Under the pieces are notes generated by a model, which saw only the letters and a list, made by a program, of their open reading frames with translations, was not told where the DNA came from and did no database searches. Shown one piece after another: positions 3,745 through 32,281 of a stretch of DNA of 64,000 bases. Positions within the stretch are counted from its first letter, which is position 1. Every line of letters starts with the position of its first letter. Both the position numbers and the translations under genes were made by a program. The DNA comes from a virus (taxonomy: Duplodnaviria; Caudoviricetes). Location of the stretch: positions 32,001-96,000 of IMG/VR virus record IMGVR_UViG_3300032219_002522, one strand, 5' to 3'.

Positions 3745-4338
3745 TCACTGATGATGATCCAAGTCTTTTGGATAATCTTCTATCTTACTCATTATTCTTT
3801 TTAAATCTTCATATGAGTAAGGCATTAAACCGTTAGTGTCTACTCCGATATCCATCGTTCTTCTTCTATTCTGTTTAGTCCACCATTCATCTGGTTTTAG
3901 ATTATTGTGGCAGTGTCCATAAAGTTGCCAAGACCCTTTATGATACTTATTCCATATTTTCATTGGCCAATGGCTAAGGATTATAAGGTTTTTTTCAATC
4001 TCTATTTCTAGATAAGAATTTACACTTTGAAATACCTCCTGGCAATTATCTCGATTTTTGTAAATATGCTCGTCGTGATTACCCAATATAAGGTGAACAG
4101 TATTGCAGATTATTCTTTCTCTAAATTTAAAAATATTCTCAACACCTCCAAAACTCCAATCGCCTAAGTGGTAAAGTATATCGTCTTGTGCAACAACCGA
4201 ATTTATAGATTCAACTAGTTTTTCGTTATGCTCTTCTAGAGTTTTGAAATCCCTGCATCGATTACCCTCAGGCCAGCTAGTAACTCCTCTAACTATATTT
4301 TTATGCCCGTAGTGCGTGTCTGAAGTAAAGTATATCAT
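3745..4338 (-). CDS. Calcineurin-like metallophosphoesterase
   Basis: DTHYGH, HLGD, GNHD, GHCH motifs. Confidence 0.9.
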   Translation of the reverse strand: MIYFTSDTHYGHKNIVRGVTSWPEGNRCRDFKTLEEHNEKLVESINSVVAQDDILYHLGDWSFGGVENIFKFRERIICNTVHLILGNHDEHIYKNRDNCQEVFQSVNSYLEIEIEKNLIILSHWPMKIWNKYHKGSWQLYGHCHNNLKPDEWWTKQNRRRTMDIGVDTNGLMPYSYEDLKRIMSKIEDYPKDLDHHQ

Positions 4339-19719: not shown

Positions 19720-20874
19720 ATGGCAAGAATATTATCATTTAGTGATTTTAACGAACTAAGCGAAGGCTATAACTTTAACGGAAGCGATTATGGTTTTAAG
19801 GATCTTTCTAGTTACGTTGAATTATCTGAATCAGAAATGCTTTCTTTATTTGACAACGAAATCTATGAAGCAGCTCCGAAAGGAAACACTGTACAAGGTG
19901 GATTATTTGATGTTAACGATAAGAACGTTTATAATGCAGTTAAAAACGTAAAAACTGCTGTTATCCAAGGTGCTCAATACACTTTCTTAACAATAGGTCA
20001 AGGTATTAAAGCTTATGCTGATGCACAAGTTAAAGCTGCAAAAGCTACCGGACAAGCTTTATTAAATTTAGCAAAATTTACTGGTAAAGTTGTTATATTT
20101 ACTGCTGCTGGACTTTATGTAGTAACTGAAGCAGTTGCTACTGGATTAATTTCTCTAGCAACATCTATATTTGGATATGCAAAAAAAGGAGCTATTGCAA
20201 TTGGTAGTACTCTTGTTACTGCATTAAAAAATGCTAACGATTACTTTAAAAAATTAGGCAAAGCAGTATTTAATACTATTAAAAATGATGCTTTAGCAGT
20301 TGCTAAAGTTTTTATGACAGGTTTATATAAAGTTGCTAATTTAGCTTCTCAAGCTGCTCAAGCAGTTGCATCTCTAACCGTTGCAGCATATAAGATAGCT
20401 AAAACAGCATTTAAATCTATTACTAACTTTGCAGCAGAGTGTATATACGGAGCAGCTAAAGCAGCTAAGACTGTTGCTATTAAAATAGGAAAAGCGGTTG
20501 GTGATTTTTATAATGCTTCTGTAAGTGTATTTAAATCTGCTAAGGATGCTATTGTAAAAACTATAAAAACTGGATTTAACGCAGTAGCAAATACTGTTAA
20601 AGCTGGTGTGCAAAAAACAGTTAAGGTTGCTGCTAAAATAAAAACGGGAGTTGGAAATGCTCTTAAGGCCGCACAGAATAAAATCGTTAATACCGGAAAA
20701 GAAATACTTTCAGTTGGTAGCGCTATATTTAGGGGTCTTTGGGATCACGAGATTTACCAAGGAACTGACGAAGATATTTTTGAATCCTATGTTATTGTTG
20801 AGGGACAAAGATACTACGTGCCAGTTGATTCATACGATGATTACGATCTAGATATTTTCGGATCACAGTATTAA
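19720..20874 (+). CDS. Ala/Lys-rich amphipathic putative internal/ejection protein
   Basis: MARILSFSDFNELSE; long amphipathic helices; strong GCT/GCA, GGT, ACT codon bias. Confidence 0.6.
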   Translation: MARILSFSDFNELSEGYNFNGSDYGFKDLSSYVELSESEMLSLFDNEIYEAAPKGNTVQGGLFDVNDKNVYNAVKNVKTAVIQGAQYTFLTIGQGIKAYADAQVKAAKATGQALLNLAKFTGKVVIFTAAGLYVVTEAVATGLISLATSIFGYAKKGAIAIGSTLVTALKNANDYFKKLGKAVFNTIKNDALAVAKVFMTGLYKVANLASQAAQAVASLTVAAYKIAKTAFKSITNFAAECIYGAAKAAKTVAIKIGKAVGDFYNASVSVFKSAKDAIVKTIKTGFNAVANTVKAGVQKTVKVAAKIKTGVGNALKAAQNKIVNTGKEILSVGSAIFRGLWDHEIYQGTDEDIFESYVIVEGQRYYVPVDSYDDYDLDIFGSQY

Positions 20875-21352
20875 TAGAAACAAAACCTAAAAACATACCT
20901 ATTAAATGACCCCCGTGGGATATTCCATCGGGGTCATTTAGTGTAACGACCTCTCCTATCAATATAATAGCCAAAATTGGTATAAGGAATTTATTTGATA
21001 ATAGTAATCTTGTTAAAAGAAAATACACCAATCCAGATATACCTATAGAAATTTGAACTCCGAAAAAAGTAAGTATAAAAGTAAAGGTCTGAACGACTAT
21101 AGTTATTAATACCATCTGCTTTATATCATATTTGTTACCACTATGAATAAGTAACAAAAATATTGCTATTATATTAAATAGAAAATGATCTAAAGATTGG
21201 TGAATAAATCCACTAATAAATGGTAAGGATATAGCTAAATCAGCATTTCCCCCAAGTATAAGCATCATAATTAATCCTAGCGGGTATGCTAATACGCATA
21301 CTCCTAATACCTTTAATGTTTCTATAGCAGATCTTTTTAAATTTTCTTTCAT
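20792..21352 (-). CDS. Rhomboid-family intramembrane serine protease
   Basis: FIHQSLDHFLFN, GISG (catalytic Ser), SHGGHLIG (catalytic His), multiple TM helices. Confidence 0.8.
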   Translation of the reverse strand: MKENLKRSAIETLKVLGVCVLAYPLGLIMMLILGGNADLAISLPFISGFIHQSLDHFLFNIIAIFLLLIHSGNKYDIKQMVLITIVVQTFTFILTFFGVQISIGISGLVYFLLTRLLLSNKFLIPILAIILIGEVVTLNDPDGISHGGHLIGMFLGFVSINTVIRKYLDRNHRMNQLARSIFVPQQ

Positions 21353-21408
21353 TTTTTTGTTTTGTAATACAATAGTAGAAAACCCAAAGAAATATAAAAA
21401 AAGATTCT

Positions 21409-21474
21409 AAATCATTTTTTATATTAAATAAAAAGGTCTATATTTGTGAAACAAAACAAAAGGAACGATATATA
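21409..21474 (+). promoter_or_regulatory. Dual promoter (host-type TATATTTG and late GATATATA) of tRNA operon 1
   Basis: TATATTTG at 21439-21446 and GATATATA at 21467-21474; same layout at 27121-27156. Confidence 0.65.
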
Positions 21475-21482
21475 ACAGATAT

Positions 21483-21557
21483 ATGAAAAACCTAAACAAC
21501 ATATTACCTTTAATATTAAGACCGTCGATAAGACGATCTCTAAAGGTCCTGTGTTAG
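21483..21557 (+). CDS. Attenuator leader peptide 1, MKNLNNILPLILRPSIRRSLKVLC
   Basis: Codons 7-19 ATA TTA CCT TTA ATA TTA AGA CCG TCG ATA AGA CGA TCT match the downstream tRNAs; the 3' end overlaps the antiterminator strand. Confidence 0.75.
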   Translation: MKNLNNILPLILRPSIRRSLKVLC

Positions 21558-21612
21558 TTTTCAATATATACTAAACTAAAAAACCGGGACCTTTAAAAGC
21601 CCCGGTTTTTTT
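21541..21612 (+). terminator. Attenuator 1: terminator with alternative antiterminator
   Basis: Terminator AAAAAACCGGG...CCCGGTTTTTTT (21578-21612); antiterminator TAAAGGTCCTG (21541-51) pairs with CGGGACCTTTA (21585-95). Confidence 0.8.
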
Positions 21613-21614
21613 AT

Positions 21615-21630
21615 GGTCTTTGAAATATTG
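21615..21630 (+). promoter_or_regulatory. boxA-like element GGTCTTTGAAATATTG
   Basis: Near-identical to 27337-27352 and 15302-15314; resembles rrn boxA. Confidence 0.55.
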
Positions 21631-21642
21631 AATTATTAAATT

Positions 21643-21729
21643 AGAGAGTTGCCAGAGTCAGGCTTAATGGATCAGTCTTGAAAACTGACGTAGTGAAAGC
21701 TACCAGGGGTTCGAATCCCTCACTCTCTG
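21643..21729 (+). tRNA. tRNA-Ser(UGA)
   Basis: Cloverleaf, loop CTTGAAA, long variable arm, G73. Confidence 0.9.
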
Positions 21730-21734
21730 CTCAT

Positions 21735-21806
21735 GGGTCTATAGTTAAAGGGATATAACCCTAGCCTTCTAAGCTTGTATTCCTGGTTCGAGTCCAGGTG
21801 GACCTA
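21735..21806 (+). tRNA. tRNA-Arg(UCU)
   Basis: Loop CTTCTAA, T arm CCTGG-TTCGAGT-CCAGG. Confidence 0.9.
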
Positions 21807-21810
21807 CACA

Positions 21811-21970
21811 AAGCCCTCTGCCTAGCGCTGGGTATGGATCGAAGATAGAATAGGCCTCTACACCGTAGACAGGTAGGATACCTCGGTATTCTTTAATGAT
21901 ATGCACACTTATTCTCTAAATCGTGGGTTAGCACAGTTTGTATGTTCTGGGGATATTTAAAGACATACAA
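21811..21970 (+). ncRNA. Unidentified structured RNA inside tRNA array 1
   Basis: Nested stems AGCCC/GGGTT, AGAATAGG/CTTATTCT, TGCCTA/TGGGTA, TCTAC/GTAGA and AGGATAC-CTCG-GTATTCT, then a TTGTATGT/ACATACAA hairpin. Confidence 0.45.
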
Positions 21971-21973
21971 TTT

Positions 21974-22046
21974 CGGGATGTAGATCAGTTGGTAGATCGC
22001 CTGGTTTGGGGCCAGAAGGCCCTAGGTTCGAGTCCTAGTATTCCGA
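21974..22046 (+). tRNA. tRNA-Pro(UGG)
   Basis: CGGGATG acceptor, loop TTTGGGG. Confidence 0.9.
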
Positions 22047-22053
22047 CAGCCAC

Positions 22054-22127
22054 AGAGGCGTAGCTCAATTGGTTAGAGCACATGCCTTATACGCATGCGG
22101 TCACGAGTTCGACTCTCGTCGTCTCTA
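22054..22127 (+). tRNA. tRNA-Ile(UAU)
   Basis: Clean cloverleaf, CATGC-CTTATAC-GCATG, A73. Confidence 0.85.
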
Positions 22128-22130
22128 CTT

Positions 22131-22204
22131 GGTCCCTTAGCTCAGTAGGTTAGAGCAACTGACTCATAATCAGTAGGTCCACGGTTCGAGCCCGTGAGGG
22201 ACCA
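22131..22204 (+). tRNA. tRNA-Ile2(CAU, lysidine type), less likely Met
   Basis: Loop CTCATAA; GGTCCCTTAGCTCAG body resembles ileX-type tRNAs. Confidence 0.8.
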
Positions 22205-22219
22205 CAAAATTAATAATCT

Positions 22220-22300
22220 GCCTGGGTGGTGAAATTGGTAGACACGTTCGGCTTAAGATCGAATGCGAAATGCGTGAGGGTTCGAGTCCCTCCTCGGGTA
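22220..22300 (+). tRNA. tRNA-Leu(UAA)
   Basis: Loop CTTAAGA, long variable arm, A73. Confidence 0.9.
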
Positions 22301-22305
22301 CATAT

Positions 22306-22408
22306 ATAAGAGTGGCGGAAGCGAGATCATTTATGATCCGATGGAGAGACGCTAGGGTGTCATGCCAGAGAACGAAAATTCATGTTGGTTCAAGTCCAAC
22401 CTCTTGTA
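22306..22408 (+). ncRNA. tRNA-like RNA with Leu-type body, D-loop hairpin insertion and degenerate anticodon arm
   Basis: ATAAGAG/CTCTTGT acceptor, TGGCGGAA...AGACGC D arm, perfect T arm GTTGG-TTCAAGT-CCAAC. Confidence 0.65.
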
Positions 22409-22421
22409 CTTTTTAGATTTT

Positions 22422-22973
22422 TTACTTAACCTCTTTAATTCTGAAGTATCCTCGGTGATCGGTTTTACCTGGTTCTACACCATCTTCGAATTTACAATAT
22501 CCAGTAGAATTAAAGAAGTTCCATTCTTCTCTTCTACCTTTACTAAGTTTATCCTGTGGCATTAAAGATCTATTATATTCTTGATTTTCTTGGTTAATTC
22601 TCTTATACATTCCATTATAAAATGTAGATGTGCTAAGTAAATTCGTAGCTTCTTCCATTAATCTTCGATTGATATTATAGTCAAATATAGCCTCATGAAT
22701 AGAAATCTCTGAAATGTCTCTTCTATAGCTAATCCATTGTGATATAACTCCACCATAATTATATGGTGTATAACCTAAATCCCCTACGTAAAAAAGATTA
22801 AAATATGGAGAATTCTCTTTGCTGTGATCGAACAACCTTATGTTAGTATTAAAATGTGGTACAGTTCCACTGAATTCTTTCATTCTATTATAGAATTCAG
22901 GCAGTATCTCTAATGTTATTGATGTCGGATTATTATTTGCATCAAATCCCTCAAATAGCTTAATGTGTTTCAT
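22422..22973 (-). CDS. Late protein with CTS-like N-terminus
   Basis: MKHIKLFEGF after a minus-strand GATATATA. Confidence 0.6.
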   Translation of the reverse strand: MKHIKLFEGFDANNNPTSITLEILPEFYNRMKEFSGTVPHFNTNIRLFDHSKENSPYFNLFYVGDLGYTPYNYGGVISQWISYRRDISEISIHEAIFDYNINRRLMEEATNLLSTSTFYNGMYKRINQENQEYNRSLMPQDKLSKGRREEWNFFNSTGYCKFEDGVEPGKTDHRGYFRIKEVK

Positions 22974-23019
22974 ATGATTATATATCTAAATATCTAAATA
23001 AATGTGATATATAATGTAT

Positions 23020-24633
23020 ATGAAAAAGTACATAAAACTATTCGAGGAGTTTGTTTTTGAATACCTATCAAAAGCTTCTAAAATAATTAATAATATTAGC
23101 GAATTACCTAAAGTTGGAGAACCTGTAGTCAAACAGGATTTTAGCGAGGACGGTATAGTAGCTATTGATTGGAAGAACTTAGTTTTTATTAGATCCTCAG
23201 ATGAGCTTCCCACTCTTCGAGGTAAAGATATGCTACTTCACACAGGAAAAGCTCTAAAGAGCGTAGGTTTCAATGACTCTTTCGAGAAGTACCTCAAGAA
23301 GAAGTACAATAATGACATCAACGACCCTGAAAATACATGGATAAAGGAAGAACCTCACTACAAGGACTTTGAAACTTTTCGAAAATGGATGATAGATGCT
23401 CATTCCACCAGATGGACAAAACACTTTACGTTGAACCACGTAGTTTCTTCTCACTCTGGTGGAAACTGGACAGGTAACAAGTACATCTACTTGATGCCCG
23501 GAGAATCTATGATCAAGACTAACGGAAAACCTGCTAGTCTCTTTGCTATAGACACTTACTATGACAAGAGCTTGGTAGTGTCTGACGGTACAGTAGTTCT
23601 TTACTTACCTGAAGCAGATGAAGAAGTTAGGGAGTTTGTGGCTAAAACAGCTGAGAACAGAAACCAAATTTATTTCTTGAAGATAAAAGGAGATATTGTC
23701 GATTACGAGCTGAAAGATGCCAACGATGCGATAGAAGCTATGGGATACACTACGTTTAGTGGGGGCTCTCACTACTCAACCGAGTATAATCTTGACAGTG
23801 AGATGAGAGATTTACAAGACAGGGAAGACATCAGAAAAAGTGGACTACACTGGGGTTCTAAATGGTACAATCTTGAGAAGGGACAAACACACTGGGAAGA
23901 TTTTATGAGTCTAGGGAAGATAAAAAGATCCCAGTATAAAAACTTGAACATCAAGAAAGAAGAACAGGAGTACCAAGAACATAGAGGATTCAGCAAAGAT
24001 TACTTGAAAGAGTGCGTGAAATCGTTATCAAAATCTCATTCGGAAGATCCTTTCGACAAAGAAGTTGTGCGCAACTACTTACGATACATGACGATGGTTT
24101 GCAAGATCATAGCTACTCCTAAATTTTCAATGAAACAGTTCGATGAGACTGCAGGTTTCAGTTGGAATAATTCGGATGAACACGCGTTAAGTATGGATTC
24201 ATGGGATCCGAATAAATTAGAATCTGAGTTAGATAGAGATTTTGAGGCTCACCCTGAATACACAAGACCTGAACGATACGGTTACGGAACTCCAGCACAA
24301 AAAGAAGTTATGGCTAAAAGGAGCAATGAATACATAGGGGAGTATTACTATTTCAATAAGTACCTACTGTTCGACATAAAGCAAGCGTTTAAAACTTCAT
24401 GGATAGGAAAGTTCCTCCAGGATAACCGTAAAGAACTAGAAATTTTACAGGATATTATTATTAAAAAGAAAGAAAGCCCAGAATGGGAAGAAGCTGCCGG
24501 TAAGATAGCTGATAGATTAGTAGACAGTCCAGTATTTCCTGATCTTTTAAACATTGGATCATATCTAATAGCAATGAATAGAGGAGCTAAAAAGTACGGA
24601 TATAAGGACGTTTATGACATGCTTGAATTATAA
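23020..24633 (+). CDS. Putative internal virion protein of unknown function
   Basis: MKKYIKLFEEFVFE; GATATATA at 23006. Confidence 0.6.
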   Translation: MKKYIKLFEEFVFEYLSKASKIINNISELPKVGEPVVKQDFSEDGIVAIDWKNLVFIRSSDELPTLRGKDMLLHTGKALKSVGFNDSFEKYLKKKYNNDINDPENTWIKEEPHYKDFETFRKWMIDAHSTRWTKHFTLNHVVSSHSGGNWTGNKYIYLMPGESMIKTNGKPASLFAIDTYYDKSLVVSDGTVVLYLPEADEEVREFVAKTAENRNQIYFLKIKGDIVDYELKDANDAIEAMGYTTFSGGSHYSTEYNLDSEMRDLQDREDIRKSGLHWGSKWYNLEKGQTHWEDFMSLGKIKRSQYKNLNIKKEEQEYQEHRGFSKDYLKECVKSLSKSHSEDPFDKEVVRNYLRYMTMVCKIIATPKFSMKQFDETAGFSWNNSDEHALSMDSWDPNKLESELDRDFEAHPEYTRPERYGYGTPAQKEVMAKRSNEYIGEYYYFNKYLLFDIKQAFKTSWIGKFLQDNRKELEILQDIIIKKKESPEWEEAAGKIADRLVDSPVFPDLLNIGSYLIAMNRGAKKYGYKDVYDMLEL

Positions 24634-24643
24634 TTAGAATAAT

Positions 24644-25066
24644 ATGATTAAAAAACTATCATATTTCGATATATCCGGAATAATTACAAAGCAATATCCT
24701 GAATATACTCTAATAATAGGTAAAAAATCTGAGGATATATTTAATTATTTTGCCGTAGATGAGTTACATGGACTATATAGAGATAAATGTCATGATAATC
24801 CAAATAACGCTTATATAGCTGGTTTATGTAACGTTTATCCTAATGATCATAATAAATTCTTTATCTTTCTAAATTCGATTAGATTAGATAACGGATACAA
24901 GGACGTCCTTTTAATAATGCACGAGTGTATGCACATGTCTCTAGAGATTCATGGTACAGATTTGACATATAGAGATGGAAATGACATAGAAGAAATTGCT
25001 ATAACTTGGGCAGAGAAGAATTCTGAATCAATTTACGAATTCATTATGTCCAAAGGAATATTATAA
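24644..25066 (+). CDS. HExxH hypothetical protein
   Basis: IMHECMH ... EEIAITWAE. Confidence 0.5.
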   Translation: MIKKLSYFDISGIITKQYPEYTLIIGKKSEDIFNYFAVDELHGLYRDKCHDNPNNAYIAGLCNVYPNDHNKFFIFLNSIRLDNGYKDVLLIMHECMHMSLEIHGTDLTYRDGNDIEEIAITWAEKNSESIYEFIMSKGIL

Positions 25067-25088
25067 AAAATAGGATATATAATGGGTC

Positions 25089-25460
25089 ATGCACGATCAC
25101 ATTAAAATATCCGGACTTGGTATAGAAATATACAAAAATGATATACCAGGGGTAAGATGGTATAAAGCTCAGTCTTTTATTAATGATCTTGGAAATGGAT
25201 GGAGATTGCCTTCATTAAAAGAACTTGCTTTAATAAAAACACTAAGAGATCTTGGTGGCATAGGTAGATTTCCTACCGAATATTCAGATTTTTCTGATTC
25301 GTATTATTGGAGTAATGAGGAAGGCGAGGTTACTAGTATAAGAACACAAGGGAAAGATGGGAAAAGTAACTATGCTTACTTTTTTGATATGTCGGAGGGA
25401 ACTTCTTCACATAATAAAAAATCATACGATCTTAGGGTTAGGTTTGTCAGAGATATATAG
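25089..25460 (+). CDS. DUF1566 (Lcl C-terminal, C-type lectin-like) protein
   Basis: GWRLPSLKEL, YYWS, AYFFDM..G, VRFVR. Confidence 0.75.
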   Translation: MHDHIKISGLGIEIYKNDIPGVRWYKAQSFINDLGNGWRLPSLKELALIKTLRDLGGIGRFPTEYSDFSDSYYWSNEEGEVTSIRTQGKDGKSNYAYFFDMSEGTSSHNKKSYDLRVRFVRDI

Positions 25461-25463
25461 AAT

Positions 25464-26315
25464 ATGCCAACAACAAGACCCTTTGCATATAATCCAACAC
25501 AATCAACAATTTCAGGAACTACAAATGTAGGTACATTATGCGTAGGTGTATCTGCTTTAAACTATGGTGCAAATCCAGGAGGACTAACTTGGTGGATGGG
25601 TCCGGACGAGGATAATTCTTATGTAATATCTAAAGATGTACCAACTTCAAACTTTCCTACCCCAGTAGGAAATGTAGGCACTGTACAATTTTGGAGATGC
25701 TCTAATACAGATGAAGCTTTTAGAAGTACAGTACAAATAATAAGCGGTATCACTCAAGCTTCCGCTTTAGCAGCTAGTGATTGGTTAACAACAAATGGAT
25801 ATTGGACTAATCGGAATCCATATCTTGCAGGTTTATATAAAACAACTTACTCCGGATATTTTGCTGATAATGTTAGTTTCTTTGCAACTGCTACTCCTGC
25901 ATCAGTAGGGGGAAATCCAGCTACATCAGTACAAACAACATCTATATTTGAACCCGCTCAAAATGATGGCGAGAATTTTAGTTGTCAATGGCTAGGTTAT
26001 TTTAAACCAACAACTTCTGAAACATATACATTCTACACTTCAAGTGACGACGCTTCGTATGTGTGGATAGGTTCAAATGCACAGACAGGGTTTACAACTA
26101 CAAATTCAACAGTTAATAACGGGGGATTACATGGGACACAAGAACGTTCAGGTTCTATTGCATTAACTGCTGGTACATATTATCAAATAAGAATACAATT
26201 TGGTGAACTAAGTGGAGGTGACGTAATGACTTTTAGTTATTCAACCCCTACTATTACAAAAACTACCAATGTAACAGGACTAGTATTTTATAATCCGTCC
26301 ACTAATGGATTCTAA
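25464..26315 (+). CDS. PA14-domain carbohydrate-binding virion protein
   Basis: NFSCQWLGYFKP..ETYTFYTSSDDASYVWIG...NNGGLHG...YYQIRIQFGE. Confidence 0.8.
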   Translation: MPTTRPFAYNPTQSTISGTTNVGTLCVGVSALNYGANPGGLTWWMGPDEDNSYVISKDVPTSNFPTPVGNVGTVQFWRCSNTDEAFRSTVQIISGITQASALAASDWLTTNGYWTNRNPYLAGLYKTTYSGYFADNVSFFATATPASVGGNPATSVQTTSIFEPAQNDGENFSCQWLGYFKPTTSETYTFYTSSDDASYVWIGSNAQTGFTTTNSTVNNGGLHGTQERSGSIALTAGTYYQIRIQFGELSGGDVMTFSYSTPTITKTTNVTGLVFYNPSTNGF

Positions 26316-26350
26316 TTCAATAATTAGATATATACAATAAAATCAAAGAA

Positions 26351-26629
26351 ATGAAGCATATTAAAAATTATCAGGCTAAAAATTCTAAAATTAACGAGGG
26401 ATTTTGGGATTCTCTTTTTGGTAGACCCACTGTTGATGATGCTGCTCACGATCAAATGAGAGGTCAAGGATGGAGTCACAGAGGTAAAGATGAAGAAAAC
26501 TACATCATGTTCCAAGGGCAAAAGTTCTATCCCGATCAAATCCAATATGATGATGTTTATTCAACTAAACAAATACCAAGAGTTGAAGGGGGTATGTTAA
26601 TCGTAGCTAATCCAGCTTGGAATTTGTAA
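26351..26629 (+). CDS. Small late protein with CTS-like N-terminus
   Basis: MKHIKNYQ...INEG after GATATATA. Confidence 0.55.
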   Translation: MKHIKNYQAKNSKINEGFWDSLFGRPTVDDAAHDQMRGQGWSHRGKDEENYIMFQGQKFYPDQIQYDDVYSTKQIPRVEGGMLIVANPAWNL

Positions 26630-26701
26630 AAAAAATCAGAAATCTTTTTTTTCTTATTATTTTGATCTCTATATTTGGATCCTAATTAAAAAACTTTTAC
26701 A

Positions 26702-27079
26702 ATGAAATTAAACAAAATGAGCAGGGTTACTATGAAGGTAGCTCACGAGAATCCAGATGCTAGCGTGAACTTCACAGCGGTAGGGATAGGAAAAGATCAA
26801 AGAGAAGCAGCTATCTTCGCATTAGGATCCTTCTTAAATGTTATGAATGGTATTAGTGAGGAAGGAATTTCGGATTACAATGAAGCTTTAGAAATGGTAA
26901 ATGGTCAATATTCGGAAGCTGAAATAGTATCGTTTATGGAAAAACAATTAGAAAGCAATTCAGGTTCTTTCTTTAATGCTTACGAATCTACTGATGTTGA
27001 TTATTCATGGGATGAAGTAGAAGGTGAAGAAGCTGGAGGATTAATCCAAGAAATGGAAATAATCGAAGAGGAATATTAA
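26702..27079 (+). CDS. Acidic early hypothetical protein
   Basis: Preceded by TATATTTG (26670); very acidic C-terminus. Confidence 0.6.
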   Translation: MKLNKMSRVTMKVAHENPDASVNFTAVGIGKDQREAAIFALGSFLNVMNGISEEGISDYNEALEMVNGQYSEAEIVSFMEKQLESNSGSFFNAYESTDVDYSWDEVEGEEAGGLIQEMEIIEEEY

Positions 27080-27167
27080 AAAATATCAAAGAAACATTTT
27101 TTTATTCAATAAAAAGATTGTACATTTGTGAAACAATATCAGAAAAGAGATATATAAACAAGAAACA

Positions 27168-27275
27168 ATGAAAAACTGTAGTAAACATAACATCATTCGC
27201 ATGAACAGTCAGATTAATGGCTGCTATCAAACGGTGGCGTTTTGGGCTAAGGGAAAAGATCCCGATCGAAGCTAA
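27168..27275 (+). CDS. Attenuator leader peptide 2, MKNCSKHNIIRMNSQINGCYQTVAFWAKGKDPDRS
   Basis: Contains codons for all 7 downstream tRNAs and no ATA/TTA/AGA/TCN; the last codons form the antiterminator strand. Confidence 0.7.
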   Translation: MKNCSKHNIIRMNSQINGCYQTVAFWAKGKDPDRS

Positions 27276-27336
27276 TACAAGAAATCATATTTAGATATTT
27301 TGAAAAGGCTTTGATTAACTTCAAAGCCTTTTTTTT
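27264..27336 (+). terminator. Attenuator 2: terminator with alternative antiterminator
   Basis: Terminator AAAAGGCTTTGA-TTAACT-TCAAAGCCTTTT plus T tract (27303-27336); GATCGAAGCT (27264-73) pairs with GGCTTTGATT (27307-16). Confidence 0.75.
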
Positions 27337-27352
27337 GTTCTTTGACATATTG
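27337..27352 (+). promoter_or_regulatory. boxA-like element GTTCTTTGACATATTG
   Basis: Shared by all three ncRNA operons. Confidence 0.55.
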
Positions 27353-27358
27353 GAAATT

Positions 27359-27440
27359 GGGAGCGGTAGCAAAGTTGGTCAATGCACCGGACTGAAAATC
27401 CGGCCATGTGGGTTCGAAGGTTCGAGTCCTTCTACTTCCA
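27359..27440 (+). tRNA. tRNA-Phe(GAA), atypical (12-nt variable region, Tyr-like body)
   Basis: CCGGA-CTGAAAA-TCCGG; T arm GAAGG-TTCGAGT-CCTTC. Confidence 0.75.
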
Positions 27441-27445
27441 CAAAA

Positions 27446-27518
27446 GGTCCCGTAGTTCAATGGATTAGAATGGAACACTACGGATGTTCTGATCCTGGTT
27501 CGAATCCAGGCGGGGTCT
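27446..27518 (+). tRNA. tRNA-Arg(ACG)
   Basis: GAACA-CTACGGA-TGTTC. Confidence 0.9.
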
Positions 27519-27529
27519 CAAACAAATAA

Positions 27530-27603
27530 GGTCGCGTGGCCGAGTGGTTAGGCGCTAGTCTGCAAAACTAGTAACACTGGTTCAATTCCAGTCACGACCT
27601 CCA
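27530..27603 (+). tRNA. tRNA-Cys(GCA) with encoded CCA
   Basis: CTAGT-CTGCAAA-ACTAG, U73, CCA. Confidence 0.9.
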
Positions 27604-27624
27604 AAAAATAAAATAATAAAGCCT

Positions 27625-27756
27625 ATGGATGAAAAAGTGGTAGTAAAAGGAAGTTTCCCCTCTAGTAAAGAAAACTTAAAAAGAGAAACATTAAAATTTA
27701 AACACGCCGAAAGATTAATAAAAAGAATTAAAAGGCTAATTAACAAAGGAAAGTAA
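27625..27756 (+). CDS. Small basic ORF inside tRNA array 2 (43 aa)
   Basis: Own translation MDEKVVVKGSFPSSKENLKRETLKFKHAERLIKRIKRLINKGK*; A-rich upstream region. Confidence 0.4.
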   Translation: MDEKVVVKGSFPSSKENLKRETLKFKHAERLIKRIKRLINKGK

Positions 27757-27833
27757 TCTCAGATGGTGACGGGGCTCGCCTGCTAAGCGAAGCGTACCTT
27801 AATTGGTATTTGGTTCGATTCCAATTCTTTCCG
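27748..27833 (+). tRNA. tRNA-Ser(GCU), divergent
   Basis: TCGC-CTGCTAA-GCGA, long variable arm, G73; some stem mismatches. Confidence 0.75.
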
Positions 27834-27839
27834 CAATAT

Positions 27840-27913
27840 TGACATATAGCTCAGTTGGTTAGAGCGTTGATCTGATACGTCAAAGGCCGAAGGTTCGAAT
27901 CCTTCTATGTCAC
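27840..27913 (+). tRNA. tRNA-Ile(GAU)
   Basis: TTGAT-CTGATAC-GTCAA; TGACATA/TATGTCA acceptor. Confidence 0.85.
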
Positions 27914-27918
27914 CCCAC

Positions 27919-27991
27919 GCCTTTGTAGCTCAGCTGGTAGAGCGCTTCACTTGTAATGAAGTTGTCGCAGGTTCGATTCCTGTCAAAGGCT
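27919..27991 (+). tRNA. tRNA-Thr(UGU)
   Basis: CTTCA-CTTGTAA-TGAAG. Confidence 0.9.
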
Positions 27992-27996
27992 CATAT

Positions 27997-28069
27997 TTTC
28001 CCCTCGTCTAATTGGCGGGACATGTGGTTTTGGACCAGAAGAGTCCAGGTTCGAATCCTTGGAGGAAAA
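27997..28069 (+). tRNA. tRNA-Gln(UUG)
   Basis: Loop TTTTGGA, U1-A72 acceptor. Confidence 0.8.
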
Positions 28070-28111
28070 CAAAAAGATAAATACAATGTCCAGTATGTAA
28101 AATTTAAGATT

Positions 28112-28603
28112 ATGAAAGTTCTAGTATTAAATAACGACTTTACGCCAGTGAGTGTTACCAATATAGCTCGGGGATTCAAACTTGTATATAAAGGTAAAGC
28201 CGAAGTATTAGAACATGACGAATCTAATCCTATTGTTACAGATCAACAAGTTTATAAAAGACCATCAGTTATAAGGCTTTTAAAGTATGTTGTTCTTCCA
28301 TTTAAGAAGCTAAAACCCACTAGGGAGAACATATTTAAGAGAGACGAATTAAAGTGCTTATATTGTGATGCTACAAAGCAGCTTACAATAGATCACGTAA
28401 TCCCTAGATCTAGAGGAGGTATTAATACATGGGAGAATCTAGCAACTTGCTGTTCTAGATGCAACGGTAAGAAAGGAGATAGAACTCCAGAAGAAGCAGG
28501 AATGAAGATGCGTCACAAACCATTTAAACCTGGATATGGATATTTTATCCGGAATTTTTCTAAAGGAATGGATGTTTGGACATCATATCTTCCAGAATAT
28601 TAA
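28112..28603 (+). CDS. HNH endonuclease (McrA-like)
   Basis: VLVLN, RENIFKRD..CLYC, TIDHVIPRSRGG.NTWENLATCCSRCN.KK; true start ATG at 28112. Confidence 0.9.
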   Translation: MKVLVLNNDFTPVSVTNIARGFKLVYKGKAEVLEHDESNPIVTDQQVYKRPSVIRLLKYVVLPFKKLKPTRENIFKRDELKCLYCDATKQLTIDHVIPRSRGGINTWENLATCCSRCNGKKGDRTPEEAGMKMRHKPFKPGYGYFIRNFSKGMDVWTSYLPEY

Positions 28604-28606
28604 TAT

Positions 28607-30253
28607 CTATAGAAGAACTCTTTCAGCATATTCCATAACTGCAGGATGTGTGTCTACTAAATGTTTAACAAGTGCAATAGTATTAGGATCCTCAGAATTT
28701 TGTGTTTGTTCTAGGAAAGATCCTAACATTTCCACTCCATCTTTTGTTAGACCTAATATATTTATAACATCGTTTTTGTCGTATTTATTGTCGCTAAGTT
28801 CTTTAAATAGATCAATATCCTCTAAGCTGAAGAATCCTCCATTCTTCTCAGAGTTAAATGCCTTAACAATTTCATTATATGTTATGGAATTGTCTTTTTT
28901 AATTATAGATACTATAATGTTTTTAAAAGCGTCCATCTCTTCTTTGGAATATTCTCCCTCTTCTATAGATCTTTGAACTCCTAAACTTCCTAGAGCATGT
29001 ATTAAAGCTATATTATTTTTACCTGTTTTTTGTTCTATCGATTGAATAATTTTTTTGATTATCAATTCACTTTCAAAATTTTTAGCTATAGATTCCTCTA
29101 TTTCAGGAGAATAGATTCCGTATTTTTTCATGAAATCTACATAATTTTGATTACCGCTTGAAACGCTACTGTTGCTTCTGTTAGCAGAACTAGTAATTCT
29201 TCCGCTAGGATCTATAGTAAGAGATGTTAGGAATTTATTATCAGTCTTAGGAAGATCTAATAGATTTATAGATATTTGTAGTCTTCCAGTTGTATAGGTC
29301 CAGAATGTTGAATCAGTTCTTATACAATATGGTGCATTTGATACTTTACAAACCGCTCTCATACCTTCCGCTGATCTAGCAGATGTTACCACTATCTTTT
29401 TAGCAATATTATAGTATAGTATTTTTATTGATGGAGATATAGACTTTAAAAGCTCTATAAATTCACCTATTCCTGATCCCCACCCAGATACTTTATCTTC
29501 GCAGTCCCTAACAAAATCTTTAAATGCCACGTAAGTATCTGCAAATTCAGGATAAGTCCTTGTGTCTTTATATTTACTTCCATAATTAATTAGCTGCTCC
29601 TCTGCGGTTTCCTCTATATTAGTTTCAGGATCTACAATAGGCTTTAATTTTTTTATGTCGGTTACTGCGTGATATAGTCTATCTAAAAGTTCAGCCCTTT
29701 CAGGATCAGTATTTTTTAGTTTAAGAGATTCTGCAAATTCTCTTCTTATTGGTCCTACGAAATTATCTATAAATTCCTTTATAGGCTTTTGTGCTTCTAC
29801 ATTCTCTAGATCATCCCATAGTTTTTCATAAGCTCTTTCACCCTGTGGTGTTCTTTTTATATAATTATCAATGTTACCAAAAGGAAGAGGAAACGTAGAA
29901 AGCATCGGAGACATTTGCTCATATTTTCTATAAAGGTTCTCTACTGAAAAAGAATTAGGATCGTTATCTCCATTGGACATTGGTAATTTCTCTACTATAC
30001 GAAAATACGTAAAAGGATACACCAAACCTGGTTTTTTAACTTTATTTAAAAAGTAATCTCTTACTTCTATGTAATCTGGATTGCTTAATATTTTTTTCTC
30101 TTCCTCTGGAGTAAATTCTATCTTCTCCATAGGATCTAATTTAAGCCTCCTTTTTTTATCGTCTGCTGCTAATTTTAATAAAAGAGCCTTAGCGGGAGCC
30201 ACATTTTCATTGATTGGATAAAATTGGTCGAATGATTTTAAATTTCTATTCAT
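28607..30253 (-). CDS. Putative internal virion protein, paralog A
   Basis: MNRNLKSFDQFYPINEN; collinear with 30266..31933. Confidence 0.6.
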   Translation of the reverse strand: MNRNLKSFDQFYPINENVAPAKALLLKLAADDKKRRLKLDPMEKIEFTPEEEKKILSNPDYIEVRDYFLNKVKKPGLVYPFTYFRIVEKLPMSNGDNDPNSFSVENLYRKYEQMSPMLSTFPLPFGNIDNYIKRTPQGERAYEKLWDDLENVEAQKPIKEFIDNFVGPIRREFAESLKLKNTDPERAELLDRLYHAVTDIKKLKPIVDPETNIEETAEEQLINYGSKYKDTRTYPEFADTYVAFKDFVRDCEDKVSGWGSGIGEFIELLKSISPSIKILYYNIAKKIVVTSARSAEGMRAVCKVSNAPYCIRTDSTFWTYTTGRLQISINLLDLPKTDNKFLTSLTIDPSGRITSSANRSNSSVSSGNQNYVDFMKKYGIYSPEIEESIAKNFESELIIKKIIQSIEQKTGKNNIALIHALGSLGVQRSIEEGEYSKEEMDAFKNIIVSIIKKDNSITYNEIVKAFNSEKNGGFFSLEDIDLFKELSDNKYDKNDVINILGLTKDGVEMLGSFLEQTQNSEDPNTIALVKHLVDTHPAVMEYAERVLL

Positions 30254-31978: not shown

Positions 31979-32281
31979 ATGGGTAGAAATATAATAACTA
32001 AGTTATATGAGTTTGTTATGACTCAGCCTTTAACTAAACCTAGGCCAACAACAGTTCCTACAACTCCTACTAGACCTGTAACTCCTCCTGCACCGGCAAG
32101 GCCAGGAAGACCAGTTCCAGACAGAGAGCCTAGACCAGAGGAGACTGAAAGACCGATAGCTAAGGCTTTTGGACAGGCTATGGGAAATATAAAAAGCTCC
32201 CTAGCTCAAGAAAGAGGTACTAAACTAGCAATGGGCATTATAAGTAGGCTAAGAAAGCTTAAAAATTTACCGATGGCATAA
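31979..32281 (+). CDS. Pro/Thr-rich small late protein
   Basis: ORF after the palindromic GATATATATC. Confidence 0.55.
   Translation: MGRNIITKLYEFVMTQPLTKPRPTTVPTTPTRPVTPPAPARPGRPVPDREPRPEETERPIAKAFGQAMGNIKSSLAQERGTKLAMGIISRLRKLKNLPMA

Follow-up and report, generated by a model that had tools for sequence, protein, structure and literature searches.

A putative leader-peptide attenuator upstream of a tRNA gene array in a tailed phage genome

An array of tRNA genes in a caudovirus genome is most probably controlled by a ribosome-mediated (leader-peptide) transcription attenuator, a prediction that draws on sequence comparison and RNA folding models. The cassette occupies positions 27121-28070 (plus strand) of the window, that is, the entire 64,000-nucleotide stretch that was analyzed (positions 32,001 to 96,000 of the IMG/VR record IMGVR_UViG_3300032219_002522), and consists, in series, of a promoter block, a 35-codon ORF, an antiterminator and a terminator, a boxA-like site and the tRNA array. 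The attenuator features that the original prediction proposed upstream of this array (array 2) were re-derived from the sequence, and each was found in its place; the architecture as a whole is supported by the retention of the antiterminator, the terminator and the leader across 13 homologs. Along with this anatomy, the case is built on the codon-periodic conservation of the leader, a compensatory change in the terminator, the match between codons and arrays in ten independent cassettes, and the placement of the cognate codons within the leaders. An Rfam search of the region 20500-29000 yields no known leader family above the threshold, and a megablast search against a phage collection detects only matches of about 95 bases to the Thr tRNA, in Klebsiella phages, and no relatives.

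Anatomy of the cassette

The promoter block (27090..27136) includes a T-rich upstream stretch, a -7 box and a 12-base block, aligns with the region upstream of the sister array (array 1), and is kept in 12 relatives. The -7-type box TACATTTG (TAnnTTTG) corresponds to 27121-27128 and is adjoined by the 12-base block common to array 1, exact copies of which are present in the window only at 21443 and 27125. This box is a candidate Bacteroidota-type sigma-A -7 element, identified as such by the published Bacteroidetes consensus. The TAnnTTTG motif occurs 77 times in the window, where 82 occurrences are expected; given this lack of enrichment, the motif count lends no support to the promoter assignment. 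The A-rich 5' UTR (27137..27167) is devoid of a Shine-Dalgarno sequence and holds the element GATATATAA at 27149-27157, also common to array 1. A search with the motif that combines the promoter and the start region finds a tRNA array downstream in 7 of the 10 viral matches. The same pattern is present in at least 80 bacterial loci, many of these in Bacteroidota, and among the matches listed, none of the 80 has a tRNA gene within 1.5 kb downstream; thus, there is no sign that the hosts use the cassette.

The leader ORF (leader 2; 27168-27275, 35 codons) is intact in 13 homologs. Region 1 (27239..27245) lies within the Ala-Phe-Trp codons 24-26 and can pair with 27266-27272; the resulting 1:2 hairpin has a predicted energy of -10.6 kcal/mol in the window and -10.4 to -11.3 kcal/mol across the 13 homologs. 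Region 2, the antiterminator strand (27264..27273), spans the stop codon and the three codons before it and is a near copy of the 3' arm of the terminator. It is complementary to 27307-27316 over 10 bases, including three G-U pairs, and no other stretch of the leader complements the 5' arm of the terminator as well (shuffle P=0.037). The intrinsic terminator (regions 3 and 4, 27302..27336), which was identified by a terminator scan, lies 28 bases past the stop codon of the leader and consists of a 13-pair hairpin followed by a T-run. The 3:4 terminator fold has an energy of -17.0 kcal/mol, the 2:3 structure -15.3 kcal/mol in the window, and the 2:3 duplex ranges from -11.9 to -14.3 kcal/mol across the 13 homologs. 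The possibility that an antiterminator of 10 pairs could not compete with the terminator, which was raised in the original prediction, is not borne out: when each homologous sequence is folded singly, the antiterminator matches or exceeds the stability of the terminator core in 13 of 13 cases. One pair of the terminator stem is T-A in 7 sequences and C-G in 6, and is never broken; because the leader homologs are close relatives, this covariation may reflect one or two events only.

The boxA-like element (27336..27348) is located immediately 3' of the terminator and is conserved in the relatives. Ten of the 12 positions of the E. coli rrn consensus and 10 of the 13 positions of the B. subtilis consensus are matched, both consensus sequences being used as printed in PMC13753749. 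The copy in array 1 (21613-21625) is closer to the B. subtilis consensus, with 12 of 13 positions matching (PMC13753749). Exact plus-strand matches to the 10-base core of this element are found in the window only at the array 1 and array 2 sites. A putative boxA situated between a terminator and an array only makes sense in a read-through transcript: given its position 3' of the predicted regulated terminator, only read-through transcripts would gain it. In the interval from the terminator to the first tRNA gene, no promoter-like site was found, and hence no trace of the constitutive internal promoter that, according to the original prediction, would speak against attenuation.

The sister cassette (array 1, 21439..22301, plus strand) shows the same arrangement, with a promoter, a leader ORF (leader 1, 21483-21557), a terminator (21578-21612) and the boxA-like site, followed by tRNAs for Ser(UGA), Arg(UCU), Pro(UGG), Ile(UAU), Met/Ile2(CAU) and Leu(UAA). 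The array 1 terminator produces sub-threshold Rfam matches to Thr_leader (28 bits, with a cut-off of 55) and L20_leader (25 bits, with a cut-off of 59).

A reduced tRNA array behind an unchanged leader

Array 2 has been described as encoding seven tRNAs. ARAGORN recovers Arg(ACG) (27446..27519), Cys(GCA) (27530..27603), Ile(GAU) (27840..27915), Thr(UGU) (27919..27992) and Gln(UUG) (27997..28070) as claimed, all on the plus strand, and Rfam also detects Arg, Cys, Thr and Gln. The other two assignments require comment. The non-canonical tRNA-Ser(GCU) (27748..27834) is detected by ARAGORN at a relaxed threshold only and by the Rfam tRNA-Sec model with 38 bits; it is 95% conserved, with compensatory changes in the D-stem and the T-stem, among 8 homologs. 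The tRNA-Phe(GAA) (27359..27441), identified by ARAGORN and, with 50 bits, by Rfam, is a deletion chimera: its 5' part corresponds to the Phe tRNA of the relative L014, and its 3' part to the end of an extra Tyr(GUA)-like tRNA of L014, joined at a 5-base repeat, TTCGA (27413-27417). In the chimera, the acceptor stem contains a single C-A mismatch along with two G-U pairs, and the D stem is reduced to only 3 pairs. Between the Cys and Ser genes, the array contains a small basic ORF of 43 aa (27625..27756), which runs with its stop codon into the 5' end of the Ser tRNA gene; 8 homologs retain an ORF of 41-45 aa at this site, despite a nucleotide identity of 67%.

In relatives with complete downstream DNA, leader 2 heads an array of 15-16 tRNAs, namely Phe, Lys, Trp, Arg, Cys, (Ser), Ile, Val, Asn, Tyr, Gly, Ala, Met, His, Thr and Gln. 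The deletion at the Phe chimera joint removed the Lys and Trp tRNAs from the window, and a second deletion, with the junction at about 27908-27918 where the 3' end of the Ile gene is fused to the His-Thr spacer, removed Val, Asn, Tyr, Gly, Ala, Met and His. Judged by these scars, the seven-gene array of the window is a deletion derivative in which 16-17 genes were reduced to seven with the leader unchanged. The suggestion that leader 2 records a formerly larger array is thus corroborated by both the arrays of the relatives and the deletion scars. Of the tRNAs that were expected behind this leader in relatives, His, Asn, Gly, Tyr, Trp and Lys are indeed present, together with Val, Ala and Met, and the exception is Asp, which is absent from the ancestral array. 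Given that the array was cut by two deletions and the leader was not altered, the putative sensor now reports more tRNAs than the array supplies. Moreover, because the array is decaying, as indicated by its chimeric first gene, the control could be vestigial in this particular genome.

Leader codons and tRNA rosters

Comparison of leader 2 with the 16-tRNA array of the relatives shows that 29 of its 34 codons are read by these tRNAs (background 0.50, P=1.8e-5); only 2 of the 383 small ORFs of the genome do as well, and all amino acids of the relatives' array are covered (P=0.002). The seven tRNAs encoded in the window read 14 of the 34 codons, so that the representation of these tRNAs in the leader, as originally claimed, stands out against codon usage (P=7.6e-4) and is only modest in comparison with small ORFs (31 of 383 are equal). 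By its codon content, leader 2 is tuned to the 16 tRNAs and not to the present seven. The codon inventories reported earlier are correct for both leaders: leader 2 is free of ATA, AGA, TCN and Leu codons, and leader 1 contains no ATY and no AGY codons. The split between isoacceptors holds as well, with 15 of the 16 Ile, Arg and Ser codons of leaders 1 and 2 matching their own array (P=2.6e-5 in a test conditioned on the peptide sequences and the genome codon usage). Separately, the presence of 18 of the 20 amino acids in leader 2, which the original prediction singled out, is not unusual (P ~0.16) and was rejected as evidence in itself.

The amino acids encoded by codons 1-30 of leader 2 are exactly the 16 of the ancestral array. 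The residues that do not belong to the array (Asp/Glu, Pro and Asp) are confined to codons 31-33, beyond the modelled switch point (see below); because a ribosome located there would mask the antiterminator, these positions are predicted to be outside the sensing zone. Leader 2 is almost invariant in 12 IMG/VR relatives, and among the 13 homologs, which are close relatives of one another, it is the best-conserved segment of the cassette, with 96.4% mean identity; the identity is 77-83% in the promoter and UTR, and 67% in the protein-coding ORF inside the array. The variable sites of the leader (n=14) are distributed 1/2/11 over the three codon positions (binomial ~7e-4), and the synonymous changes in the sensing zone are always among codons of the same roster amino acid. 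In leader 1, the non-synonymous changes are swaps only among the array 1 amino acids.

The same relationship is detectable beyond this cassette. Ten pairs of leaders and arrays were compared, including the three leader types of this clade and seven from a distantly related 374-kb phage. The summed codon match of the ten pairs is 3.50, compared to 1.45+-0.34 when the pairs are permuted, and none of the 200,000 permutations reaches 3.50. In 10 of 10 leaders, the stretch that best complements the 5' arm of the terminator lies within 0-36 bases of the ORF end. According to a kinetic proxy, the cognate codons in the ten leaders are enriched where the antiterminator can form (table rows 94, 88 and 16, 63; P=1.3e-6). 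Within this clade, the code is divided among the three leaders in parallel with its division among the three arrays, which represent 6, 4-5 and 16 tRNA species.

Predicted mechanism, rival readings and known systems

The probability of terminator formation, P(terminator), was derived from base-pair probabilities in an equilibrium model. With the A site of the ribosome on codons 21-28, the modelled P(terminator) is 0.04-0.13, and with the A site on codons 29-36, it is 0.85-0.95, so that the model predicts a sharp switch between codons 28 and 29. Intermediate values of 0.33-0.52 result when the ribosome stalls on codons 3-20, and without a ribosome the value is 0.24, that is, mostly read-through, unlike the trp attenuator. 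For the 374-kb phage, with its GC-rich terminators, the equilibrium model breaks down and only the kinetic proxy fits.

From these observations, we infer that the leader is translated and that termination depends on ribosome stalling. Transcription would begin at the conserved promoter, and the leader would be translated as the RNA polymerase nears the terminator, under the assumption that transcription and translation are coupled in the presumed Bacteroidota host. A ribosome that quickly reaches the last seven or so codons would cover 27264-27273, and the terminator (27302-27336) would form and stop transcription. A ribosome delayed anywhere from codon 2 to about codon 29, a stretch in which each of the 16 ancestral tRNA species is represented, would leave 27264-27273 free to pair with the terminator 5' arm as the antiterminator, allowing the polymerase to read through. 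The boxA-like site on the read-through RNA probably would recruit NusB/S10, so that the untranslated array is transcribed processively. The quantity sensed would be the decoding speed of these codons, i.e., the pool of charged cognate tRNAs. With this pool as the signal and the same tRNAs as the product, the loop would be a supply homeostat.

The same hardware might respond to a different signal, either host amino-acid starvation or translational stress, perceived through tRNA charging, or tRNA cleavage by host anticodon nucleases, in which case the array would be a stress or counter-defence response instead of being kept at a fixed level. An attenuator of this type can distinguish neither phage tRNAs from host tRNAs nor low abundance from low charging, and leader 2 samples nine tRNA species that are no longer encoded by the array of the window, so that for their codons it can report the host pool only. 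We nevertheless consider such a signal unlikely, given that additional tRNA would not relieve amino-acid starvation and that the tight match between each leader and the roster of its own array in ten cassettes is what product feedback predicts; the three leaders also divide the code in step with three arrays. A further reading is conceivable, if speculative: the three leaders and three arrays, dividing the whole genetic code among them, might form a modular, phage-encoded monitor of the decoding capacity of the cell, in which leader 2 of this genome, uncoupled from its array for nine species, might serve solely to sense the depletion of host tRNAs (for example, through host shut-off or an anticodon-nuclease defence) and switch on the remaining phage tRNAs.

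Two further readings dispense with sensing altogether. The high conservation of the leader 2 peptide is also what a functional small protein would show, variation concentrated in third positions is typical of coding genes, and a second conserved small ORF resides inside the array; the 35-codon ORF could then be a protein gene with its own terminator, and the array would be expressed via leaky read-through or from an unrecognised start, with the codon match being incidental. This is very improbable because ten unrelated peptides follow the content of their own arrays, the non-synonymous swaps in leader 1 are confined to the array 1 amino acids, the 3' end of the ORF always duplicates the terminator 3' arm, and a boxA-like site lies 3' of the terminator; furthermore, the synonymous sites are far more conserved than those in the neighbouring small ORF (96% vs 67% identity). 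The terminator could also be a fixed, unregulated partial stop, or the end of an independent small RNA, that sets a constant ratio of leader to array without the involvement of translation. The partial termination obtained for the ribosome-free RNA in the equilibrium model (0.24) is compatible with this possibility, and an attenuator-derived small RNA with functions in trans, rnTrpL, has reportedly been described. The codon periodicity, the roster match and the end of the cognate codons at the modelled switch point all would be left unexplained, which makes this the least probable of the readings considered here.

The tRNA genes of phages are usually viewed as constitutive cargo that offsets a codon-usage mismatch or the loss of host tRNAs. 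Under the attenuator reading, their expression becomes conditional: the phage would gauge the decoding speed codon by codon and make the matching tRNAs only at need, in a closed loop, and stable-RNA genes would join enzyme operons as targets of leader-peptide attenuation. The roster of a leader can be read from the sequence alone, and that of leader 2 predicted the nine tRNAs missing from this genome. The question of when and why phages need tRNAs of their own would also become testable. If the leaders do form a monitor of decoding capacity, the 16-valent leader 2 would have a broader range than any other 'any-of-N' translational sensor described. A leader of this kind might be useful as a compact multi-input translational sensor in synthetic biology. 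A literature search that covered few of the subscription journals turned up no report of tRNA genes under leader-peptide control.

Among the known systems, T-box riboswitches also tie tRNA status to terminator read-through ahead of translation-related genes. T-boxes act independently of the ribosome, binding uncharged tRNA directly through the T-box sequence and a specifier codon, whereas the phage element has an ORF and lacks the specifier-loop architecture; an Rfam search of 20500-29000 for T-box families at E values up to 1 gives no match. In rrn-type antitermination by boxA and NusB-S10, a boxA sequence similarly opens a long untranslated stable-RNA transcript, but in the phage the boxA-like element is directly 3' of the predicted regulated terminator. 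In the pheST operon of E. coli, the pheM leader peptide controls the expression of an aminoacyl-tRNA synthetase: as predicted for the phage cassette, a component of the translation apparatus is governed by the decoding speed at cognate codons. In pheST, however, this component is a protein, an enzyme for the charging of a single tRNA species, and in the phage it would be many tRNAs, with the leader being a roster of them all.

The amino-acid operon attenuators of enterobacteria (ilvGMEDA, thr, trp, his, leu and pheA) share with the phage cassette a leader ORF that is translated (in the phage, predicted to be), regulatory codons, an intrinsic terminator, a mutually exclusive antiterminator set by the ribosome position, and the layout of regions 1 to 4. 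It is established from trp and his attenuation that an attenuator is blind to the source of the tRNA, phage or host, and to the distinction between low abundance and low charging. Multivalent leaders are also known, with ilvGMEDA sensing Ile, Leu and Val, and thr sensing Thr and Ile, and the phage leader appears to follow the same 'any of several' logic. The differences are that the valency of the phage leader is 16 tRNA species, each sampled 1-4 times, as opposed to runs of codons for one to three amino acids; that its modelled ribosome-free default is mostly read-through; and that it is phage-borne, with a candidate Bacteroidota-type promoter and a boxA-like site after the terminator. The cassette would control tRNAs rather than biosynthetic enzymes, so that the sensed molecule is the product itself. 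To our knowledge, all described leader-peptide attenuators control mRNAs for amino-acid biosynthesis or for aminoacyl-tRNA synthetases. Thus, because the genes under its predicted control are tRNA genes, the phage cassette does not appear to be an ordinary member of the attenuator class.

Anatomy and surroundings of the array 2 cassette

All the elements that the original prediction assigned to an attenuator upstream of array 2 are present at the predicted positions: a -7-type box (27121-27128), followed by a 12-base block that has a single other exact copy in the window, upstream of array 1; the leader 2 ORF (27168-27275, 35 codons); a 13-pair terminator hairpin with a T-run (27302-27336); and, in the last codons of the ORF, a 10-base antiterminator strand (27264-27273) complementary to the terminator 5' arm. 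The sequences upstream of the two arrays have in common the promoter block, the first three leader codons and a motif immediately past the terminator, the rest being different. The source record comprises 115,839 bases (33% G+C, completeness estimate 42%), of which the window covers 32001-96000, and the phage collection searched contains no close relative. The window harbors 12 confident tRNA calls, in two arrays; the seventh tRNA of array 2, tRNA-Ser(GCU) (27748-27834), is called by ARAGORN at a relaxed threshold only and is 95% conserved in 8 homologs, with compensatory changes in the stems.

Between the Cys and Ser(GCU) tRNAs, array 2 contains a conserved small basic ORF (27625-27756, 43 aa; 41-45 aa in 8 relatives) that changes as protein genes do, with the frame kept at 67% nucleotide identity, and that ends in a stop codon overlapping the 5' end of the Ser tRNA. 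Immediately 3' of the shrunken array lies an HNH endonuclease gene (28112-28603; Pfam HNH_5, E=5e-17), the product of which may have caused rearrangements there. Genes for a rhomboid-domain protein (20792-21352, minus strand) and a PA14/GLEYA-domain protein (25464-26315, plus strand) are located near the arrays (Pfam), and most of the ORFs around the arrays have no Pfam match. The array 1 terminator (21578-21612) is symmetric, with an A-run before the hairpin and a T-run after it; the terminator scan reports it on the minus strand, and it could act bidirectionally. Two stretches in or just past array 1 are without a called tRNA: a 166-base gap between Arg(UCU) and Pro(UGG) (21808-21973), present in relatives too, and a tRNA-like tail after Leu(UAA) (22302-22410).

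Codon content of the leaders and of the arrays behind them

With the background codon usage taken from 105 long ORFs of the record, array 2 reads 14 of the 34 codons of leader 2 (background 0.17, P=7.6e-4) and array 1 only 1/34; of the codons of leader 1, array 1 reads 10/23 (P=3.8e-3) and array 2 reads 2/23. The predicted partition of codons between the leaders also holds: given both peptide sequences, the codons for Ile, Arg and Ser fall in the box of their own array in 15 of 16 cases (P=2.6e-5). This split-box signal comes mostly from leader 2, whose two Arg codons belong to a set with an 8.5% share of all Arg codons in the genome. When 383 small ORFs from all six frames serve as the empirical null, the leader 1 match is in the top 2, and the match of leader 2 to the seven tRNAs of the window is unremarkable, being equaled by 31/383; nor is the occurrence of 18 of the 20 amino acids in leader 2, to which the original prediction drew attention, unusual in itself.

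The rank of leader 2 is resolved by the relatives. An IMG/VR pattern scan with the promoter-plus-start motif identifies ten loci, of which seven precede tRNA arrays (in bacterial genomes, among the matches listed, tRNAs lie within 1.5 kb downstream of this pattern in 0/80 loci), and a second IMG/VR scan, with the leader 2 core as the query, yields 12 homologous loci, in all of which the leader ORF is near invariant. In each relative with complete downstream DNA, the array behind this leader consists of Phe, Lys, Trp, Arg, Cys, (Ser), Ile, Val, Asn, Tyr, Gly, Ala, Met, His, Thr and Gln tRNAs, and the amino acids of leader 2 codons 1-30 are exactly those 16. This array reads 29/34 codons of leader 2 (background 0.50, P=1.8e-5), every member of it is covered (P=0.002), and only 2/383 small ORFs equal the match. 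Of the further tRNAs that the original prediction suggested looking for behind this leader, His, Asn, Gly, Tyr, Trp and Lys are thus present in relatives, and Asp is not.

The suggestion of a formerly larger array is borne out by these 16-tRNA arrays and by deletion junctions in the window, and array 2 of the window is a deletion derivative. Its first gene is chimeric: the 5' part, up to TTCGA at 27413-27417, is identical to the Phe tRNA of the relative L014, and the remainder to the 3' end of an additional tRNA, Tyr(GUA)-like, located after Trp in L014. The acceptor stem of the chimera is mismatched. At the second junction, the Ile 3' end is joined to the His-Thr spacer, seven genes having been removed.

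Arrays 1 and 2 of relatives have a third array between them (Glu, Asp, Met, Leu(UAG), Met), which is absent at the syntenic site of the window. This third array has its own leader, with many Glu, Asp and CUN-Leu codons, and the last codons of that leader again copy the terminator 3' arm. Its existence accounts for the lack of Leu codons and, in the window, of Glu codons in leader 2. The syntenic site (26634-27091, compared with 4051-6520 of the relative L025) contains only a 125-aa ORF (26702-27079), and the window carries about 3 kb of additional genes at 22415-25451 relative to L025. In another relative, L007 (3373-3750, minus strand), the leader 1 homolog has no ATG start and has an in-frame stop ahead of the conserved codons, so that this cassette may be decaying; both arrays of L007 are reduced as well.

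A distant 374-kb phage (100% complete, 49 tRNAs) encodes seven further cassettes, the leaders of which are unrelated in sequence, yet mirror the arrays behind them: Tyr/Asn/Gln-rich with Asn-Asn-Tyr-Tyr-Gln-Gln-Gln; Leu/Ser-rich with a Ser/Leu array; Thr/Lys/Gly/Met-rich with a Lys/Met/Gly/Thr array; Ala/Asp/Cys/Glu-rich with Asp-Ala-Cys-Glu-Glu; Ile/Arg-rich with Ile-Arg-Arg; Val/Phe/Pro-rich with Phe-Pro-Val-Val; and His/Trp-rich with Trp-His-His. Summed over ten leader-array pairs, the codon match amounts to 3.50, compared to 1.45+-0.34 for permuted pairings, and is reached by 0/200,000 permutations. The same phage has two tRNAs with the CUA anticodon (L016 1188-1259 and L015 1378-1453; amber suppressor type, labeled Pyl by ARAGORN), adjoining Leu(GAG) and Cys in small arrays with a promoter and without a leader peptide; TAG may be reassigned in this phage.

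Conservation, pairing and ribosome position

Among 13 homologs, the leader 2 ORF is the most conserved segment (96.4% identity, against 77-83% for the promoter and UTR and 67% for the protein-coding ORF inside the array), with 1, 2 and 11 variable sites at the first, second and third codon positions, respectively. Synonymous changes in the sensing zone are confined to codons of the same roster amino acid, i.e., one belonging to the 16-tRNA array; in leader 1, where three Leu codons vary, every replacement is by Ile or Ser, both array 1 amino acids. These patterns support the view that the ORF is read as codons.

The 1:2 hairpin (27239-27245 with 27266-27272), the 2:3 antiterminator and the 3:4 terminator have fold energies of -10.6, -15.3 and -17.0 kcal/mol in the window, and all three pairings are kept in the 13 homologs. 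The concern that the antiterminator is too weak to compete does not hold, the duplex being no less stable than the core of the terminator in these homologs. One terminator pair is T-A in 7 sequences and C-G in 6, and the leader strand still pairs through a G-U wobble. In 10/10 leaders, the segment that best complements the 5' arm of the terminator is located within the last 0-36 bases of the ORF.

In a model in which the ribosome masks the RNA to 13 bases beyond the A-site codon, the predicted terminator probability for leader 2 is 0.33-0.52 at codons 3-20, 0.04-0.13 at codons 21-28 and 0.85-0.95 at codons 29-36; for leader 1, it is ~0 at codons 2-17 and 0.96 from codon 18, the single non-cognate Arg codon of this leader. 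A kinetic proxy, in which the 5' arm is scored as already paired or not by the time the 3' arm is made, places the boundary just past the cognate run in 10/10 leaders, and the permissive side is enriched in cognate codons (2x2 table 94, 88; 16, 63; P=1.3e-6; ten leaders). The non-roster residues of leader 2 occupy codons 31-33, all three past the boundary (chance ~0.006 by simple combinatorics).

Transcription from an internal promoter would bypass such control, and a scan from the terminator to the first tRNA of array 2 detects no promoter-like site. Instead, a conserved boxA-like motif is found at 27336-27348 (array 1 counterpart, 21613-21625), where it would be useful only on transcripts that have passed the terminator. 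The array 2 site matches the rrn boxA consensus (PMC13753749) of E. coli at 10/12 positions and that of B. subtilis at 10/13, and the array 1 counterpart matches the B. subtilis consensus at 12/13. The tRNA arrays of relatives and of the 374-kb phage contain more boxA-like copies, with TTCTTTGA or a near variant of it as the core, and these frequently follow inserts other than tRNAs (L012 ~3950-3975, minus strand; L017 upstream of 1405; L015 upstream of 6081; L009 ~12225).

Predicted mechanism and known systems

These observations are most likely to reflect classical ribosome-mediated attenuation in which tRNAs are both the signal and the product. With fast decoding, the ribosome would come to cover the antiterminator strand and transcription would stop; when any roster codon is decoded slowly, the strand would stay free and the array would be transcribed. 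We infer that the leader 2 ORF is translated, that transcription and translation are coupled in the host, that the putative promoter and boxA sites function as such, and that the array responds to tRNA levels. The array 2 locus adds the broadest roster among the leaders compared here, a three-way split of the genetic code among leaders, and a natural experiment, the array having become shorter and the leader not.

No Rfam family fits the element, and no account of leader-peptide control of tRNA genes was found in the literature searched. The boxA-like copies within phage tRNA arrays resemble the boxA sites that rrn operons have in the leader and the spacer. In logic and layout, the array 2 cassette follows the multivalent ilv and thr leaders; it differs from these in being phage-borne, in controlling stable RNAs and in having a valency of 16.
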